This document shows, piece after piece, positions 87 through 18,897 of a stretch of DNA of 34,298 bases. This DNA is from Leptospirales bacterium (GTDB lineage: Bacteria > Spirochaetota > Leptospiria > Turneriellales > JAOUFE01): positions 1-34,298 of the forward strand of contig JBEQLE010000045.1 in NCBI GenBank assembly GCA_040326155.1. The letters run 5' to 3'. The translations under genes were made by a program, and so were the position numbers. Position 1 is the first letter of the stretch; every line of letters starts with the position of its first letter. The notes beneath the pieces are model-generated. The model made no database searches. It was given only the letters and a program-made list of their open reading frames with translations, and was not told where the DNA came from.

Positions 87-299
87 GACTCGTCCTGCAC
101 CAGCACGGCATCAAGCCGTGGCGGGAAAAAAATGTGGTGCATCCCAAAGGAACTCTCAGCTGAATACATAAAAAGAATGGAAGACATCCTGGACCTTTAT
201 GCAAAACCCCTGAACCCCAAAGAGCCTGTTATTTGCCTGGATGAAAAGCCCATTCAATTACACGGCGAAGTCCGAGAACCAATACAAGCAAAATCAGGG
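83..299 (+). pseudogene. IS630-family transposase fragment spanning the frameshift site
   Basis: The frame from 83 reads IRLVLHQHGIKPWREK. After the A7 run (126-132), the ORF from 132 reads MWCIPKELSAEYIKRMEDILDLYAKP..PVICLDEKPIQL, typical of IS630 including the first catalytic D. Similarity is lost after AKSG. Confidence 0.85.
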
Positions 300-378
300 A
301 GTTTAATTGGTGCTCGCATGGTGACTCTGGCGGAATGAAAACGTCAGATAAAATCGCCACGTTTACTTTAATAAAAAT

Positions 379-1634: not shown

Positions 1635-1676
1635 AAATATTTACTATTCTGGTGAGTTGGAAGATCCCCAAATTCT

Positions 1677-1854
1677 GTCGAGTAGCCCGCAGGAGCTTCG
1701 AACGTACCACTAGCGGAAGCAAGCAGAGCGACGTGATGCCTGAGTTTGCGAACGAAACTTCGTCCTTACGCACCAAAACTGGTTTACTCCCGAACAGATA
1801 AGGGAGTATGAAGATCTTTCACCTTCCGGGTAAATCACACTCTTCTTGGCATAC
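1677..1854 (-). mobile_element. putative internally deleted group II intron remnant (5'-end-like plus domain VI/3' end)
   Basis: The minus strand starts GTATGCCAAG..GAAGGTGAAAGATCTTC (alternative GTGCG start at 1773) and ends GAAGCTCCTGCGGGCTACTCGAC. No domain V or RT ORF. Confidence 0.5.
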
Positions 1855-1979
1855 CGTGGTTTGAGCATCATAAAAAATTAATTGACATTCCAAATAAATT
1901 ATATGGAATTTTGTATAATATGGTAATCTCTGTTAAGTTCAGGGTAACTATATATTAAAATGTTAGCTTCCAGGGTTCA

Positions 1980-2366
1980 ATGAAGAAATTTCTTAAAAAA
2001 GCCGCAAGTATCATAGTTCTACTTATGCTTGCAGTGGGAGTTCTATTTCTGTATTTGAATAGAGATCAGAAATTAGACTTTGCTTCTATTTTGCCTCAGG
2101 AAATAGAACACTGTGGAAATACACTAGGCCCGGAACATACAGAATATGTAGAATTAAGAGTATGGTTCGAATCCAATCAGGGCGGTTGGACAAATACACC
2201 GGCTACATATGTACCAGGTAGTACATATACGGGTTCAACGATCTCTGTAAATGTTTTAGAAAATGGGGTAATCGTTAACTATAAGGCTAAACATAATGGC
2301 TGGTATCAAGTAAAAAGATTGAAAAAATCCAATGAATTATCAAATACATGCAAAAAAAACGAATAA
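1980..2366 (+). CDS. hypothetical membrane-anchored/exported protein
   Basis: 128-aa ORF with basic N-terminus and one hydrophobic segment (IIVLLMLAVGVLFLYL). Confidence 0.75.
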   Translation: MKKFLKKAASIIVLLMLAVGVLFLYLNRDQKLDFASILPQEIEHCGNTLGPEHTEYVELRVWFESNQGGWTNTPATYVPGSTYTGSTISVNVLENGVIVNYKAKHNGWYQVKRLKKSNELSNTCKKNE

Positions 2367-2395
2367 GAAACTTAGGTAATTTGTAGCCATCCCCT

Positions 2396-2488
2396 GCGAG
2401 GCGGTTCCGAGGATCCCTCGCTCATCTTCCAAACAGTAACGTGCGGGAAAGACTAACATACTTTCATAAACTTCTTTCGTCGCACGTT
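2396..2488. repeat. two intergenic inverted repeats (possible terminator or element remnant)
   Basis: GCGAGG(2396-2401)..CCTCGC(2416-2421), and AACGTGCGGGAAAGA(2438-2452)..TCTTTCGTCGCACGTT(2473-2488). Confidence 0.45.
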
Positions 2489-2507
2489 CTTGATACACAA
2501 TAATTTA

Positions 2508-2544
2508 TTGACAGTTCGTTATTTGTAACATATTTTGTATTACA
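2508..2544 (+). promoter_or_regulatory. TA operon promoter with overlapping RHH-type operator
   Basis: TTGACA 2508-2513, 17 bp, TATTTT 2531-2536. TGTAACA and TGTATTACA motifs flank the -10. ATG at 2544. Confidence 0.6.
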
Positions 2545-2792
2545 TGACTACCGTGCGACTCAACAAAGAACTTGAAGATCAAATAGATGCTATCGCTCAG
2601 AATGAGCATATTACAAAATCTGATGTAATTAAGAAAGCTCTTGAAAACTATTGTACTACCTTTTATTCTGAAAAGACTCCATACGAAATTGGGAAAGAAC
2701 TTTTTGGTCGCCAGGGTAGCGGCCGTAAAAACGGCTCTACAAACTATAAAAACATTATTAACAAAATTATACATGAAAAACGCAATCATTGA
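2544..2792 (+). CDS. CopG/ribbon-helix-helix antitoxin (VapB-like)
   Basis: MTTVRLNKELEDQIDAIAQNEHITKSDVIKKAL fits the RHH pattern. Overlaps the start of the PIN toxin. Confidence 0.85.
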   Translation: MTTVRLNKELEDQIDAIAQNEHITKSDVIKKALENYCTTFYSEKTPYEIGKELFGRQGSGRKNGSTNYKNIINKIIHEKRNH

Positions 2793-3192
2793 TACAGGCC
2801 CAATTGTAGCTCTCTTTGACAAAGATGACAAGTTTCATAAAAATGCCATAACCTTTTTCAAAAGCTTTCATGACAGATTAATAACTACCTGGCCCGTTAT
2901 TACAGAAGTATCATATATGTTAAATTTTAATATTGATGTACAATGTGCTTTTTTTGAATGGGTAAGGTTGCACGGCATCTCTATTTATGAAATTAGCCCA
3001 AATCAAGTTCAATAAATTATTTATCTGATGAAACGGTACTCTCATGTTCCAATGGATTTAGCTGATGCATCTATATTACTATTATCTGAAGAAAAGAAAA
3101 TTACCGATATAATAACATTTGATTCTGATTACTACATCTATAAATTGGAAAAGAAAAAATCTTTTAACAATTTGATGAGCGGACATTACTGA
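2773..3192 (+). pseudogene. vapC: PIN-domain (VapC-like) toxin with in-frame TAA at 3013-3015
   Basis: MKNAIIDTGPIVAL..TTWPVITE before the stop. The same frame continues IIYLMKRYSHVPMDLADAS..IITFDSDYYIY to TGA 3190-3192 (139 codons). Confidence 0.85.
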
Positions 3193-3338
3193 AATCACGA
3201 ACTTAGTATAACAAAATTTATTTATTCAGACACTGCTGCGCGCCTTCTTGTTCCGCACCTTATTATACTTCAAAATGATCCTTTCATTTAAAGAGACATT
3301 CGATCAATTATTTTTTTCGTAGATGCCCAACCGCTTTT

Positions 3339-3403
3339 TGTTCGATACCGTACATATACACTTGACAACCAACATCCCTTTGATATATGTACGCAAACGT
3401 ACA
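3339..3403 (+). promoter_or_regulatory. promoter flanked by two TetR-type palindromic operators
   Basis: TGTTCG-atac-CGTACA (3339-3354) and TGTACG-caaa-CGTACA (3388-3403) surround TTGACA 3362-3367 and TGnTATATG 3381-3389. RBS AAGGAG precedes ATG 3418. Confidence 0.7.
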
Positions 3404-3417
3404 ATAAAGGAGTTACT

Positions 3418-3795
3418 ATGAATTTTAAAAAAACTGCGGGGATAATTATTATGATACTGGGAGCATTGCATTTAATGGCACATGCACTTGGACCAAAGTC
3501 TGAATCGGATTATGTAATAATTCAAAAAATGCAAGAACATGGAATTAACTTTCTAGGCGAACACACTTTATGGGGCTTTTACACTGCCTTTTCCTTGTCT
3601 ATGGGAATTCTTTACATGTTTGCAGGTTCTTTGATCATTCTTTCAAAAGATAAATTTGCTTTACTAAGTTGCCTTGTTTTCTTATCAATACTAAGTCTAG
3701 TAGCAATATTATACGTTCATGCTCTAGCCTATGGTATGCTATTGATTGCACTGTTGTTCATAGTTTTATCTGTGATAAAGAAGGAATATGCCTAA
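3418..3795 (+). CDS. small multi-pass membrane protein (LIC_13387-family-like)
   Basis: 125 aa with about four hydrophobic segments and H..AH and GF..AFSLSMG motifs. Family name is from recall only. Confidence 0.7.
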   Translation: MNFKKTAGIIIMILGALHLMAHALGPKSESDYVIIQKMQEHGINFLGEHTLWGFYTAFSLSMGILYMFAGSLIILSKDKFALLSCLVFLSILSLVAILYVHALAYGMLLIALLFIVLSVIKKEYA

Positions 3796-4351
3796 AACGA
3801 TTTGTTCCAAAGAAGATTGGCTAAAATTGGGCCTCTTGAGGTTTGCCAAAAGTGGTCCAACTGCTCTAATTATTGAAAAGATGGCTTCAACCTTAGGTTG
3901 TGCAAAAACCAGTTTTTACAACTACTTTGGAAATAGAGAAAGGTATATCGATGAAATTATAGAATTTTGGGTGCAATATACGACCCATCATGTGGGAAAA
4001 AAACTGAATGAAATAGAGAGTCCTTTAGAAAAATTGAAGTTTTTAACAGAGTACTTGTTTTCAACCAAAGAAATGGAAAACTTTTATTTTTATTTTCGTG
4101 AATTGGCAAATGAAAATCCCAATTATCGACGTATCTTAGATGAAAATGAGCTTTATCGAATGAATGCTTTGAGTGATATTCTGCAAACTTTAAACCTTAC
4201 GAAAGCCAACTCGTTGATGAAGGCTGAAATATATTACGATTATTTTTTCGGCTGGCATGATAGGAATAAACATTTATCCATTACCCCTGGTATTCTGAGA
4301 AAGCAATTCAAAATCATATCGAATATATTAGGTGTTCCTATAAATTACTAA
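3788..4351 (+). CDS. TetR/AcrR family transcriptional regulator
   Basis: N-terminal HTH: WLKLGLLRFAKSGPTALIIEKMASTLGCAKTSFYNYFGNRE. Confidence 0.92.
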   Translation: MPKTICSKEDWLKLGLLRFAKSGPTALIIEKMASTLGCAKTSFYNYFGNRERYIDEIIEFWVQYTTHHVGKKLNEIESPLEKLKFLTEYLFSTKEMENFYFYFRELANENPNYRRILDENELYRMNALSDILQTLNLTKANSLMKAEIYYDYFFGWHDRNKHLSITPGILRKQFKIISNILGVPINY

Positions 4352-4432
4352 ATTAAACTTCGACGAACAGACTTTCAGCTGCTCGCACCTGCGTGGGGCC
4401 AAATTGAAGCGTTTCACAAGCTCGTTATATAA

Positions 4433-4896
4433 AACGACCAGAACTATTATTTTTATATCGAAAGAGCTGCAATTTCGTACTATTAACACAAAGTTATACT
4501 TGAACATAGTAACCTTATGCATCCCAATGGTTACGGTTCTCTGTTTTTTTATTCTACGTATTAGGTTCAAGATCGCCCTGAAAATATCTTTAATTCATAC
4601 GGTTTTTATAACCCATAAAAGCAGGAGAATTGATTTCCTTTTCTTTTATAGTCCTTGCAATGCACTAAACGCGTTTTACCAGCATGTATCTCAAGTTTAC
4701 ATTCGACTATCGCGCGGGAATTTTATCGCGCATCTAACACGGTTCCTGACTTACCGCAGGATAAAAAGATTATTATTGACTATTTAGTCACATATTATAG
4801 AAAAACCTTATATAATTTATTTGGCCTAATATTGCAATAACCAAGCAGCGGCGTGAATATCAAAAGAAATACAAGCGGGCAAATAGAGGACCGAAC
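4433..4896 (+). pseudogene. possible decayed ORF with multiple stops
   Basis: One frame from 4433 reads protein-like through several stops into the 4655-4840 ORF. A shifted frame ends ..QRREYQKKYKRANRGPN. No family recognised. Confidence 0.25.
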
Positions 4897-4963
4897 AAAC
4901 GCTTCACTCTAACGCTGAGCTCGCACAAAACTTGAGGTTATTTTTGGGCGGGGGTTTAATTTT

Positions 4964-5551
4964 ATGAAATTACGTGCTAAAGCATTTTTCCTGGGTATTA
5001 TGTTAGTATTTACAATACTCTCCTGTTCTACGATACAAACAAGTTTAAAACAGTCAGATATTAAGAGAATGGAATCGCTTACAATTCCTATGCAAGGTTT
5101 TAATATTCAAATTATAGATACTCGACCTGATGTTACTTCTCGCCTTCTTTTTATACCGGTTATTTCATTCCCGGGGCAACATGATAGAATCTCACCCCGC
5201 ATTCCAGACGATTTCAAGGAAAATTTAAATAATGTATTGAAAAACATTGTTGTTCCAGGTGAAAAAAAGTACATATTTATTGTATCAATATTAAAGGCAT
5301 ATCAACAATTCGATGCCTCAACCTTTTATGAGAGAGAATATATTTATATTGAGCTACAAACTGAGTTAATCGACGAAGAAAATAATGTTAGAATTGATAT
5401 TTCAAAAACTGAATACTGGTTAGATTTCCGGTCTATTGATGCATCACATGAACACATTAATGAATTATTTTCAAAAGCTTTAGTACTCACTTTTTCTAAA
5501 ACATTGACTCAATTAAATCCTGCATTCAATGACGAAGTGCAATTTTTTTAG
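4964..5551 (+). CDS. hypothetical lipoprotein
   Basis: 195 aa with signal peptide and spirochaetal-type lipobox FTILS-C. Confidence 0.8.
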   Translation: MKLRAKAFFLGIMLVFTILSCSTIQTSLKQSDIKRMESLTIPMQGFNIQIIDTRPDVTSRLLFIPVISFPGQHDRISPRIPDDFKENLNNVLKNIVVPGEKKYIFIVSILKAYQQFDASTFYEREYIYIELQTELIDEENNVRIDISKTEYWLDFRSIDASHEHINELFSKALVLTFSKTLTQLNPAFNDEVQFF

Positions 5552-5693
5552 CCTCTAAAGGTGTTCGAAAAATAAGTGCAAAAAATTAAAGATCAAAGAC
5601 AACCCCTATATTAAAGGTGTTTCGAAAACAGCGTTTGAGCTTAAACGACGTTGCCGATGTGCAGAGACACTGGTGTCGACAAGAAGGGTAGAT

Positions 5694-5922
5694 CAGGAAC
5701 TTCCCCCGCAAAATTTCACGATACCCGATTCTTATTAATTAATTTCCCGGATACAAATTTATGTATCAAGCTAGAGATGAGCGTTTGATACGGAATTCCT
5801 TCGTCGATCGCTATATTTTGTACCGATTTCCATTCACCTTCTTCAAAGGAGTTTAAAATCTCTTTTTCATGTTTTTTTAATTTAGGTTTCGCTGCCATAA
5901 TCTTCCTCCTTTAAGTAGTCCC
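5694..5922. repeat. direct-repeat copy of 7421-7758 with a 108-bp internal deletion
   Basis: Near-identical alignment. The deletion removes 7549-7656 between TTTTG microhomologies (7544-7548 and 7652-7656). Confidence 0.95.
5716..5898 (-). pseudogene. internally deleted duplicate of the BrnA/CopG-like antitoxin
   Basis: 60 aa, equal to the 96-aa ORF 7444-7734 minus 36 aa in frame, with 3 substitutions. Only the last few toxin codons remain upstream. Confidence 0.85.
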
Positions 5923-5950
5923 GCTTAGATTCCCCATACAAAATATTTCA

Positions 5951-5980
5951 TTGACAAAATGTTGATAACTGTCGTAGCAT
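5951..5980 (+). promoter_or_regulatory. sigma70-like promoter, likely leaderless start at ATG 5988
   Basis: TTGACA 5951-5956, 18 bp, TAGCAT 5975-5980. No SD before ATG 5988. Confidence 0.5.
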
Positions 5981-7304
5981 GAGCTATATGAAAAAAAATA
6001 TAATTCAGATATTTTTCATTTTATTTGTCTCAATGCAGATTTCTTCAATTGAAAAGAAAGAGATTAAAAAAGAAATTGAAAAAAAACTAATTTATTCATT
6101 ACAAAATGGTGAACAAATAGGAACTTTTACAAATCGATGGGATTCTAGTAATATTATTTTAAATGATCAAGTCGTTTTATCTATTGATCGTGATGAAGAA
6201 GGTTACAAACAATCTCGATTTATTCTTATTAATGGAAAAGAATATGGGCCATATGTAGATACATTTGTAGTACAATTTACTAACAATGGAAAAGAATGGA
6301 ATTTTATCGCACTAAAACAAAGGGGATATTTTGTTATTTTCAGTGATGGCAAAGAACTTGGACCATATGAATATGCAAATTATTTTAGCATTAGCCCGGA
6401 TGGTAGAAATTGGGCTTTTATCGCTAGAAAATTAGATGGTCAATATTATGTTATTTTTAAAAATGAAAAAGAATACGGTCCTTATATGGATGCAAGACCT
6501 GTAACATTTAGTTTAAATAATGATGCATGGGCTTTTAACGCGTTGAAACCAGATGGTAAATATTATGCTATATTCAATGATGGTAAAGAGTATGGACCAT
6601 ATAAAAGTTCACATTATTTCGCGTTTAGTCTAGACAGCAAAAAGTGGGCTTTTAGCGCTGAAAAATTAGATGGAAAATATTATGTTATTTTTAATGATAG
6701 CAAAGAATATGGACCATATGAAAGTCAAATATTTGTTCAATTTTATAGAAAAAGTAATAAGTGGTTTTTTTGGGCTAAAAAATTAGGTGGAAACTATTCT
6801 ATTATCTTCAATGATGGCAAAGAATACGGGCCGTATAAAAAGAAAGGATATCTAAGTCTTAGACTAGGCGGCAAACAGTGGGCTTTTATCGCGGAAAAAC
6901 TAGATGGAAAATCTTATGTTATTTTCAATGATGGCAAAGAATATGGACCGTATAAAAGTATAATGGATCTTAAATTCAATAAATATAATAAACAGTGGGT
7001 TTTTTTTGCTGAAAAATTAGGTAAAAAATATGACTATTATTTTATTTTCAATGATGGCAAAGAATATGGGGTGTTTCAACACTGGAGTTTTCAGGTTATT
7101 TTCAGCGATAATAGTAAAGATTGGGCAATTTTTAAATATTACAGAAATGATGACAATTATTTTAGTATTATCTTCAGTGATGGTTATAGATCTAATAGTA
7201 TTTCTTCATTAAAATTTTCAAACGACAAAGGAAAAAATAAATTTTTCTATTGGCTATTAGAAGAAAATCGAAAAATCTATTTAATGAAAAAATGGATTGA
7301 TTAA
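5979..7304 (+). CDS. exported tandem-repeat (beta-propeller-like) protein; likely start 5988
   Basis: Signal peptide MKKNIIQIFFILFVSMQISS. Eight ~39-aa repeats of the form NDGKEYGPY..F...K.WAF.A.KLDGKYYVIF. Confidence 0.85.
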   Translation: MSYMKKNIIQIFFILFVSMQISSIEKKEIKKEIEKKLIYSLQNGEQIGTFTNRWDSSNIILNDQVVLSIDRDEEGYKQSRFILINGKEYGPYVDTFVVQFTNNGKEWNFIALKQRGYFVIFSDGKELGPYEYANYFSISPDGRNWAFIARKLDGQYYVIFKNEKEYGPYMDARPVTFSLNNDAWAFNALKPDGKYYAIFNDGKEYGPYKSSHYFAFSLDSKKWAFSAEKLDGKYYVIFNDSKEYGPYESQIFVQFYRKSNKWFFWAKKLGGNYSIIFNDGKEYGPYKKKGYLSLRLGGKQWAFIAEKLDGKSYVIFNDGKEYGPYKSIMDLKFNKYNKQWVFFAEKLGKKYDYYFIFNDGKEYGVFQHWSFQVIFSDNSKDWAIFKYYRNDDNYFSIIFSDGYRSNSISSLKFSNDKGKNKFFYWLLEENRKIYLMKKWID

Positions 7305-7407
7305 AAGTTCAAGCTGAAATAATCTATAAAGGTTTCTATGTCTACAATATAAACAATGGCTGATTGAGGCATATGAGAAACACCAATTAGCTATTTTATG
7401 TTTTGCT

Positions 7408-7440
7408 GTCGAGTAGCTCGCAGGAACTTCCCCCCGCAAA
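7408..7440 (-). mobile_element. group II intron 3'-end (domain VI-like) remnant
   Basis: Minus strand TTTGCGGGGGGAAGTTCCTGCGAGCTACTCGAC. 7406-7430 is 23/25 identical to 1675-1699. Confidence 0.55.
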
Positions 7441-7443
7441 ATT

Positions 7444-7734
7444 TCACGATACCCGACTCTTATCAATTAATTTCCCGGATACAAATTTATGTATCAAGCT
7501 AGAGATGAGCGTTTGATACGGAATTCCTTCGTCTATCGCTATATTTTGAATCGATTCTAAATCCTTTTCATTAATTCTGATATTGATTCTCTTATCTTTT
7601 CTTAAAGTATTTTTGGCATAGTTAGAATATTCTTTAATCTTACTATCCAGGTTTTGTACCGATTTCCATTCACCTTCTTCATAGGAGTTTAAAATCTCTT
7701 TTTCATGTTTTTTTAATTTAGGTTTCGCTGCCAT
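7444..7734 (-). CDS. antitoxin, CopG/BrnA-like
   Basis: KDKRINIRINEKDLESIQNIAIDEGIPYQTLISSLIH RHH motif. Downstream of and overlapping the toxin. Confidence 0.88.
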   Translation of the reverse strand: MAAKPKLKKHEKEILNSYEEGEWKSVQNLDSKIKEYSNYAKNTLRKDKRINIRINEKDLESIQNIAIDEGIPYQTLISSLIHKFVSGKLIDKSRVS

Positions 7735-8011
7735 AATCTTCCTCCTTTAAGTAGTCCCTGGTAGCTTTTCTACTTGGAATAATTGTTTTCAAGAATATTT
7801 CGTGATCATTTTCGACAAATGGGACCATGTAAATATATTTATTGATGTTTAGAAGAAAAATTTTCTGGTGTGGATATTTGCTTTTATTTGGATGTTCCAT
7901 TATATCAACAATCTTTCCAAGCTCTAGATAATGCGTTACAACTTCAAAAGAAATTCCCCTTTCTATTTGTAATTCCTGGTTTTTATCCTTATCCCAGTTA
8001 ATTTTCTTCAC
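7718..8011 (-). CDS. BrnT-like ribonuclease toxin
   Basis: INWDKDKNQELQIERGISFE..HPNKSKYPHQ..YMVPFVE..FLKTIIPSRKAT. Toxin-first operon order. GTG start. Confidence 0.88.
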   Translation of the reverse strand: MKKINWDKDKNQELQIERGISFEVVTHYLELGKIVDIMEHPNKSKYPHQKIFLLNINKYIYMVPFVENDHEIFLKTIIPSRKATRDYLKEEDYGSET

Positions 8012-17889: not shown

Positions 17890-18897
17890 TTAGACCACTT
17901 CTTTCATTCCGAAAGCTAAACCTAGCCCGGCTAATTTACTTTTCAATTGCAGCAGTACTTTGTCGGAGTAATGTTTGCTTTTTCTAAGATCTTCTTCATA
18001 TTTACCGACAAGATCTTTCATAGTTCTCATATCAAGGCTTTTTAATACAGCCATTGTACGTACAGAGAAACCATACTCTTCCAGAGGCATATTGAGAACT
18101 TCAGCCAAAGCTTCGTCAGCTTCGTCAAATTCTTCCTCTTCTTCGTACATTTCCTCTTCAAAATTAATAAATACTGTAAGATGCTCTTTCATTATTTTCG
18201 CAGCGTAGGCGACTGCGTCTTCAGGAGCAATTGTACTATCAGTCCATACTTCTAATATGAGTTTGTCATAATCAGTTCTTTGATCTACTCTAGTTTCAAC
18301 AACATCAAAATTTACTTTTTTAATTGGTGAAAACATTGCATCGATTGGAATAACGCCAACCTCATCGATCAATTTTTTTGTGATTTCGGCTGCAAGGTAA
18401 CCTCGCCCTTTATCCACCTGCAAAGTCATACTGATATCGGCGTTATCGTTCAAGTGAGCAATAACAATCTCAGGGTTCATAATCTTAACAGATGTGTTAT
18501 TATCAAGGTCCGAAGCTAACAATAAGCCAGGTCCTTTCTTTTGAACATCGATTGTTACAGGGCCGCTTCCATCATATTTTACTCGAACTTTTTTTAAGTT
18601 CAAAAGAATTCGGGAAACATCTTCCCGTACGCCTTCAATGTTAGTAAACTCATGACTTACATTCTCCATTTTGACAGCTACAATCGCAGCGCCTTCAATG
18701 ACAGACATAAGCACTCGCCTCAAGGCATTTGCTATTGTTACCCCAAAACCTTTTTCAAACGGTTCGGCTATAAACTTACCATAATTATTTTTCTTTTCAG
18801 CATGGTGAAACTCCACCACCTTAGGACGTTTTAATCCTTTTAATAAATTCTTAGGTGTGGGTTTTGAATCCATTGTTTCTTCTTTCGTCGACGACAT
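17890..18897 (-). CDS. rpoA: RNA polymerase subunit alpha
   Basis: EPFEKGFGVTIANALRRVL, GVREDV, GRGY, RVDQRTDYDKL. Confidence 0.98.
   Translation of the reverse strand: MSSTKEETMDSKPTPKNLLKGLKRPKVVEFHHAEKKNNYGKFIAEPFEKGFGVTIANALRRVLMSVIEGAAIVAVKMENVSHEFTNIEGVREDVSRILLNLKKVRVKYDGSGPVTIDVQKKGPGLLLASDLDNNTSVKIMNPEIVIAHLNDNADISMTLQVDKGRGYLAAEITKKLIDEVGVIPIDAMFSPIKKVNFDVVETRVDQRTDYDKLILEVWTDSTIAPEDAVAYAAKIMKEHLTVFINFEEEMYEEEEEFDEADEALAEVLNMPLEEYGFSVRTMAVLKSLDMRTMKDLVGKYEEDLRKSKHYSDKVLLQLKSKLAGLGLAFGMKEVV

Follow-up and report, generated by a model that had tools for sequence, protein, structure and literature searches.

We analyzed a 34,298-nucleotide (nt) stretch of a Leptospirales bacterium genome (contig JBEQLE010000045.1 of assembly GCA_040326155.1, positions 1 to 34,298 of the forward strand), which is referred to in its full length as the window. 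Toward its start the window holds an island of genes in which most open reading frames (ORFs) match no Pfam family. The island also contains two toxin-antitoxin (TA) modules, pieces of a repeat resembling the attC sites of integrons and, beyond the ends of several plus-strand ORFs, short copies of a terminal motif, CTGTCGAGTAGCYCGCAGGARCTTC, that we attribute to a group II intron (Table 1).

On the plus strand CTGTCGAGTAGCYCGCAGGARCTTC occurs at 1675-1699 and 7406-7430, in both places matching the degenerate pattern without a mismatch. The copies agree with each other at 23 of 25 nt, and 100 dinucleotide shuffles gave a mean of 0.00 matches to the 25-mer. A preliminary description of this DNA had reported both copies, and their coordinates and identity were reproduced here. 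It had also listed a degenerate third copy at 5675-5704, which stands in part: the letters are as described and the part from CAGGAACTTCCCCC onward is secure, being the start of a duplication (5694-5931 versus 7421-7767, 96-99% identity) that copies part of an antitoxin gene, but the left part (GTCGAC..GTAG) can be aligned only with a gap. The plus-strand ORFs 420-1634, 5979-7304 and 4964-5551 end 41, 102 and 124 nt before the sites at 1675, 7406 and 5675, which agrees with the distance of ~40-125 bp, on the strand opposite to the ORFs, given in that description. So does the base that follows ...TCGAC on the minus strand, which is an A in all three cases, since T precedes GTCGA at 3/3 sites.

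The genome to which the window belongs (G000; 171 contigs, 94.7% complete; contigs are designated by C numbers) contains four copies of the 23-mer core, namely the two in the window and those at C97:5515 and C122:5744, and the last two have ~100 nt of sequence in common further inward. The Rfam model of group II intron domains V-VI, RF00029, matches C122:5668-5744 with 60.1 bits, above the cut-off of 40, and C97:5515-5609, where a 21-nt insert is present, with 30.3 bits, under that cut-off. Searched genome-wide, the model also identified C142:19759-19832, C68 and C85, all at contig ends. The C142 locus is a full-length intron of ~1941 nt at a contig end, here called the parent, and unit positions are counted from its start at C142:17894. 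Its RNA matches RF01999 (domains I-IV) with 110.9 bits and RF00029 with 56.3 bits, the contig end cutting off two bases. Its 420-amino-acid (aa) ORF has RVT_1 and GIIM domains (TIGR04416, 423.9 bits; RVT_1, 143.5 bits in the genome search), and a domain search found no endonuclease domain in this reverse transcriptase (RT)/maturase. The nearest plasmid-borne intron-encoded protein (IEP), on a Leptospira noguchii plasmid, is 61% identical. Domain VI of the parent folds into a helix of 15 bp, from which an A bulges out 7 nt before the end; the fold of C97 likewise has its bulged A at -7, and the terminal AC is kept alike in the parent, C97 and the window copies.

Both window tails (stubs 1 and 2) are colinear with the 3' end of this intron, with local alignment scores of 36 for stub 1 and 45 for stub 2 against shuffle maxima of 26 and 27, respectively. 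Stub 1 consists of the 3' strand of domain VI and CTACTCGAC; it lies 41-43 nt beyond the stop of ORF 420-1634, and its 3' exon begins AGAATTT. Stub 2 keeps the upper hairpin of domain VI, without the basal helix, and lies 5 nt past the stop of the minus-strand antitoxin gene and 102-104 nt past that of ORF 5979-7304. Stub 3 arose when stub 2 and part of the antitoxin gene were duplicated at the DNA level. Judged on sequence, the motif is the last 23-31 nt of a minus-strand group II intron, as the preliminary description had proposed from the letters of the window. Its reading of the stem plus CTACTCGAC as a domain VI with branch A is borne out by the helix and terminal AC of the parent, but not by the window copies, which cannot form the bulged-A helix: stub 1 folds as the 3' strand only and stub 2 as an upper 10-bp hairpin only. 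A search of genomes with the motif, also proposed there, led to the full parent in G000, but 0 of 40 related genomes carry the motif, and a pattern search of the reference genome collection did not find the 23-mer either. The probability that the motif is instead an insertion sequence (IS) end, a repetitive extragenic palindromic (REP)-type repeat or a chance match is negligible: no evidence was found in favor of this reading, 0 copies are expected by chance, and the genome has only four, all colinear with intron domains V-VI.

The repeat that shares the island with these tails is a large family. Window positions 3200-3345 have ~20 copies in the genome, and profile searches gave 62 matches, rising to 96 merged loci on 54 contigs with a second profile. 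Complete repeats span 101-299 nt, with conserved ends (ATAACAAATTTTGATCTG... and ...CGTCAGATAAAATTGAAACGTTAT) and variable GC-rich hairpins inside. We folded eight repeats as single-stranded DNA on both strands (16 folds). Nearly every fold pairs the inner boxes TTTTATCTG/CAGATAAAA. On the bottom strand, 6-7 of the 8 folds bring the outer boxes ATAAC and GTTAT together across an asymmetric loop. The fold z-scores run from -2.0 to -6.8. Around a variable center, the outer and inner boxes thus pair to form an imperfect palindrome, as is looked for in an attC site. The repeat has the box architecture of integron attC sites, but is longer and branched. Good copies of the repeat gave no Rfam match.

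The guide sequences of the parent connect the intron to this repeat. The loop at 242-248 (GATAACA), assigned as exon-binding site 2 (EBS2), is complementary at 7/7 positions to exon positions -14..-8 (TGTTATC), and the EBS1 hairpin loop at 275-281 (TACTTCC) at 6/7 to exon positions -7..-1 (GGATGTA). In an alignment of the parent with 12 related introns (IEP identity, 50-65%), the EBS1 loop varies among introns and fits its own 5' exon at 6-7/7 positions in ~9 of the 12 relatives, and the EBS2 loop fits at 5-6/7 in ~5 of the 12; since the loops follow their own 5' exons, they are true guide loops. The exon sequence paired in this way comprises the GTTAT box and the adjoining 8 nt of outer flank of the repeat, taken from the strand that opposes its gene-sense orientation. 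Among the relatives in other phyla, we note that L044, L046, L047 and L051 (including a Spirochaetes metagenome-assembled genome, WWE3 and Steroidobacteraceae) carry TAACAA or GGTTAT within 20 nt of the 5' exon end, which hints that the wider intron clade prefers attC-type sites. In L044 a second copy lies 2.9 kb downstream.

The arrangement of introns and repeats in the genome is mostly in keeping with this pairing. The 5' end of the parent adjoins the ATAAC end of the repeat at C142:17637-17894, on the opposite strand, and intron piece and nearest repeat are on opposite strands on 5/5 contigs that have both within 3 kb. On C92 a 9-nt tail, CTACTCGAC, sits directly against an intact repeat, antisense and 29 nt after a 160-aa ORF. 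The tail on C97 measures ~390 nt; a plus-strand ORF ends 257 nt before it, and an IS110-like fragment separates it from the repeat. The 3' flank of stub 2 (AGCAAAAC) resembles both the C92 flank AGCAAAC and the outer flank of the uninterrupted repeat C122:6455. The +1 exon base is A in 6/6 tail-bearing pieces, which fits the position of intron-binding site 3 (IBS3). Four of the five independent tail-bearing fragments (window 1677, window 7408, C92 and C97) are antisense to the upstream gene, the insertion opposite to cassette transcription that is expected of the IIC-attC introns.

This orientation is shared with the IIC-attC class, with which the preliminary description had compared the motif, but the class itself is not. 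Group IIC introns are not known to have an EBS2; a IIC intron recognizes its target by a stem-loop plus short IBS1/IBS3, with no EBS2-IBS2 pairing. The parent does form that pairing, at all seven positions, and the homologous loop behaves as a guide in relatives, so that by this definition a real, covarying EBS2 places the parent outside IIC. Its EBS2 and 615-nt 5' ribozyme part give it the appearance of a IIB-type intron.

We consider it likely that a mobile group II intron resident in this genome, targeting the foot of the attC-like repeat, left these motifs behind as dead remnants. The guide loops would pair with TGTTATC-GGATGTA at the gene-proximal foot of a 101-299-nt repeat, on the strand opposite to the cassette genes. 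Going by this pairing and by the position of the parent, retrohoming would insert the intron antisense to a cassette gene and a few tens of nt beyond its end, giving the predicted order, in the window frame, of gene (+), a few tens of nt, intron (-) from 3' to 5', and repeat (+); the order gene-intron-repeat fits most observed cases. Pairing of the EBS loops with the repeat foot explains why stubs are found downstream of, and antisense to, cassette genes: they lie at gene boundaries because their target lay there. Later truncation or deletion would have taken most of each copy, and often the repeat foot too, presumably leaving tails of 9-31 nt with the intron/3'-exon junction intact. Lacking domains I-V, the stubs cannot splice or move, and in themselves they are ordinary relics, scars of old insertions.

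Several observations weigh against this account. No Rfam intron model reached its threshold on the window itself, where the tails have no RF00029 match because domain V is absent, so that the intron identity rests on identity to the sister copies; the Rfam search that the preliminary description had proposed succeeded on C122 and C142 but not in the window. The profile search detected no repeat beside stubs 1, 2 and 3 or beside an intron 5' fragment at 2371-2498, and a former repeat site is therefore only inferred at these places. By manual count, the 5' exon of that fragment fits the target of the parent at only ~3 of 14 positions. Across the genome, the 14-nt target is not enriched at 2-3 mismatches (53 and 489 matches versus 55 and 459 for the reversed control), and a recognized repeat lies beside 2 of 6 target matches at ≤1 mismatch and 11 of 53 at 2 mismatches. 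The C122 fragment has the same sense as its two flanking ORFs and lies 711 nt from a repeat, on the unexpected side. The 3' exon of the parent is missing, as the contig ends there. Finally, the 5' end of the parent had initially been misplaced at GTGCG (17907), after an exon ending ..CACGAAC; a search with this supposed exon found repeat hairpins on C71, C83 and C163, and the placement was dropped in favor of the true boundary 13 nt upstream, at 17894.

That boundary is set by the 13-mer GTGTGCCACGAAC, which is common to 3/3 copies with a 5' end (C142, window 2498 and C149), was not found beside uninterrupted repeats in a search of G000 and matches the 5' ends of the relatives (GTGTGCCACGA...), and by the preceding exon, which pairs with EBS1. 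In this intron lineage the 5' end is repeated in tandem over 13 nt (GTGTGCCACGAAC/GTGCGACGAGAG), so that two GUGYG motifs are present, at C142:17894-17919, window 2473-2498 and C149:46494-46519, where relatives have a single GUGYG. We also observed an intron derivative without ORF at a contig end (C85:57844-58092), in which unit positions ~467-639 are joined straight to ~1845-1929. It retains an intact domain V (RF00029, 39.3-42.3 bits) and is possibly non-autonomous.

Table 1. Intron pieces, attC-like repeat pieces and the toxin-antitoxin operon of the island, in window positions.
Feature	Positions	Strand	Description
attC-like right half	292..367	+	...CGTCAGATAAAATCGCCACGTTTAC; nhmmer 42.4 bits, E 1.1e-13, profile 124-200
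Stub 1	1677..1699	-	last 23 nt of intron, unit positions 1919-1941; 21/23 identical to C142 parent
Intron 5' fragment	2371..2498	-	unit 1-128, begins GTGTATCAAGAACGTGCGACG; 82% identity to C142:17894-18017
attC-like long form	3197..3361	+	left box ATAACAAAATTT..., hairpin, 90-nt insert; nhmmer 125.6 bits, E 2.5e-36
Compact attC-like, internal deletion	4353..4416	+	left end then AAATTGAAGCGTTTCAC; nhmmer 6.8 bits, E 0.0079 (4353-4397)
RT reading-frame relic	4625..4741	-	117 nt, unit ~1331-1448; 78% identity over 118 aligned nt
attC-like middle piece	4905..4949	+	nhmmer 16.0 bits, E 1.3e-05
Stub 3	5675..5704	-	inner part is stub 2 duplicate with partial antitoxin duplication; outer GTCGAC...GTAG diverged or interrupted
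Stub 2	7408..7438	-	last 31 nt; aligned to last 30 nt of parent (1912-1941), 28/30, one 1-nt gap
BrnT/BrnA-like toxin-antitoxin operon	7444..8011	-	PF04365 E 2.2e-06, PF12441 E 3.3e-06; 3' end abuts stub 2

BLAST and shuffled local alignment of the parent against the intergenic regions of the island identified further intron pieces. The 5' fragment lies 4-5 nt from the stop of ORF 1980-2366, and RF01999 gives only a weak match within it (2372-2423 on the minus strand, 13.2 bits, E 5.7). The RT relic reached an alignment score of 104 against a shuffle maximum of 29. Its presence qualifies the statement, made in the preliminary description, that the window has no RT or integrase gene, while the integrase half of that statement agrees with our search, in which no tyrosine recombinase match fell on this contig; the four PF00589 matches in the genome are all on other contigs. 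Two candidates were rejected: a third motif copy at 4700-4724 from a repeat search, which lies inside the RT relic and is not domain VI, and a "mini-intron" at 1700-1870, for which a colinear cheap-gap alignment of 1677-1870 on the minus strand scored 105 against a shuffle maximum of 106. Beyond its 23-nt tail, 1677-1870 has no intron homology on the minus strand, and 1700-1870 has no Rfam match, no match to the introns of relatives and no unusual structure (z -0.84). Near stub 1, a GC-rich segment (1771-1858) is 84% identical to a contig end in another genus of the same family (G003:C93:1922-2009) and has no other occurrence in G000; its minus strand has a GTGTG start after AAGAAGA, where G003 has GTGCG.

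Intron debris lies at 5 of the 9 intergenic boundaries of the island: four have debris without a detectable repeat, two a repeat only, one both and two neither. This density would also suit the proposal of the preliminary description that intron termini served as recombination or retro-capture joints in assembling the array, an idea comparable to the Leon and Roy model for IIC-attC introns. So would the minus-strand 5' piece at 2498-2371 and 3' piece at 1699-1677, which bracket ORF 1980-2366 as if the interior had been replaced, and a role of attC introns in cassette formation has been proposed in the literature (PMC3001079). The positions of the ends, however, are fully predicted by pairing of the guide loops with the repeat foot; the bracketing pieces, 82% versus ~91% identical to the parent, need not come from one copy; the segment around ORF 1980-2366 lacks domain V and could never splice; and on C92 the 9-nt stub adjoins an otherwise normal, intact repeat. 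The cassette-formation model put forward by Leon and Roy in 2009 reportedly ends in a spliced, reverse-transcribed product without intron ends. We regard assembly of the array through such joints as very improbable, and this claim of the preliminary description is not upheld.

How the tails became so short is a separate question. Their lengths of 9, 23, 31, ~99 and ~390 nt with a common 3' junction suggest 5' truncation, and tail-bearing pieces outnumber those with a 5' end by 6-7 to 2, as might be expected if the stubs were born short, as 5'-truncated products of abortive reverse transcription during retrohoming. Precedent exists in 5'-fragmented introns that keep domains V and VI (DV-DVI) in a cluster of attC sites lacking integrase (CALIN) (PMC7923331). 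On the other side, the expected 5' exon (IBS1/IBS2) stands beside none of the stubs; the 8 nt of IBS1 are gone from C92 as well, so that the loss there went beyond the intron; pieces with just the 5' end or just the interior (2371-2498 and 4625-4741) cannot form in this way; and in C97 the missing part is replaced by an IS110-like fragment. We therefore think abortive reverse transcription a rather unlikely origin and favor deletion after insertion, to which we give about even chances, while the data cannot separate the two.

Co-option of the stubs is another possibility: where genes converge, they could act as hairpin terminators or insulators, and they could also provide secondary recombination sites. 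ORF 5979-7304 and the antitoxin gene do converge on the 10-bp GC-rich hairpin of stub 2 (-11.2 kcal/mol), the duplication copied the boundary between this stub and the antitoxin gene, and GTCGAGT resembles a GTTRRRY core. The hairpin is followed by no T-run on either strand, though, and a terminator scan is blank there; across 9 kb that scan found 3 sites against 4.8 expected from shuffles, and a promoter scan found 42 against 41.2. Stub 1 has no comparable hairpin, and the absence of the 23-mer from the 40 related genomes and the reference collection means that there is no conservation that would suggest selection. We give co-option very little credence.

Of the repeat pieces in the island, the one at 292-367 is cut on its left side by a piece of an IS630-like transposase, the right part of the long form at 3197-3361 is degenerate and extends to ~3410, and the right-end match of the compact form at 4353-4416 was read by eye. 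The IS630-like fragment (1-340) has a GC content of 45-63% and an A7 run; it cuts the repeat at ~292, and the contig starts inside it. No integron integrase (IntI, TIGR02249 ≥265 bits) was found in the 94.7% complete genome. The best integrase-like candidate is a 352-aa recombinase on C12, which scores 181.8 bits over the whole protein against TIGR02249 (cut-off 265), lacks the IntI-specific insert and gave 102.7 and 86.5 bits in genome-level matches. At G000:C12:9450-9561, ~150 nt upstream of this recombinase, lies the repeat-foot-like GTTATCGGCAATAAACGCAGAGATTAGAAT, and the contig ends 90 nt later; the motif also occurs at C91:2202, C7:361 and C138:45259. The site near the C12 recombinase could be an attI-like array start.

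The coding features of the island, which was not found in the 40 relatives searched, include the two TA modules and a repetitive orphan gene. The BrnT/BrnA-like operon has a partial copy at 5694-5931. In G009:C15, from another family of the same order, a homologous BrnTA-like module ends beside ...AACAGATTAGTTATCAGATGTTATAACAAATT, a repeat-foot-like sequence that occupies the place of stub 2 in the window. The second module is of the ribbon-helix-helix (RHH)/PIN type, and its PIN-like toxin gene (2773-3192) is split by one in-frame TAA at 3013-3015; ORFs 2641-3015 and 3028-3192 are in the same frame, and a module copy on C148 is 71% identical. Gene 5979-7304 encodes a 441-aa orphan protein with at least 8 tandem repeats of 117 nt (39 aa) and no Pfam family; on either side of this gene lies the direct duplication of the antitoxin region (96-99% identity).

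Intron insertion in cassette arrays has been described for other systems. For IIC-attC introns (S.ma.I2 and relatives), PMC3001079 describes insertion into the bottom strand of attC, against the direction of cassette transcription. The introns studied here resemble them in lying beside or in an attC-type palindrome, antisense, between gene and site, and in a cassette array rich in TA modules. They differ in their covarying EBS2 and 615-nt 5' ribozyme part, in a target defined by ~14 nt of pairing with the GTTAT box and its flank and not mainly by a stem-loop, and in repeats of 101-299 nt with a branched interior, in a genome where no integron integrase was found. The CALIN of Halorhodospira halochloris holds 5'-fragmented class E/IIB introns, H.ha.F1/F2, which retain DV-DVI (Sonbol and Siam 2021, PMC7923331). 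These are likewise 3'-end fragments of non-IIC introns in an attC cluster without a neighboring integrase and with abundant TA modules, but they keep DV, DVI and part of the ORF, in contrast to the stubs of only 9-31 nt here. A further difference is that the genome studied here also contains a full parent, whose guide loops can be compared directly with the repeat. CALINs and sedentary chromosomal integrons in general share with the island same-direction cassettes, mostly of orphan genes and TA modules, and palindromic sites with paired outer (AAC/GTT) and inner boxes. The sites here, by contrast, are longer and multi-branched, many cassettes have promoter-like TTGACA motifs, and the best integrase-like protein, that on C12, lacks the IntI insert and falls below the TIGR02249 cut-off.

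Truncated introns in cassette arrays are already on record, and the interest of the present case is the relationship between intron and repeat. It adds a non-class-C intron aimed at attC-type repeats whose guide-target pairing is readable, and it is relevant to the coexistence of introns with gene-capture arrays and to the question whether sites are inactivated by intron insertion. Being inactive themselves, the stubs are of modest practical value; short intron tails can nevertheless mark former recombination sites in decayed arrays where the sites are no longer recognizable. We tentatively propose, as a possibility that we hold less probable than its negation, that a non-IIC, EBS2-bearing lineage has specialized on the foot of the attC-like repeat in the integrase-poor cassette system of a Leptospira-like spirochaete, and that its decay in place, in which the repeat is lost along with the intron, fixes mobile cassettes as genes. 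If this were true, intron stubs would be a readable record of cassette immobilization, and the relatives with 50-65% identical IEPs in other phyla would form a second, widespread clade of attC-homing introns.

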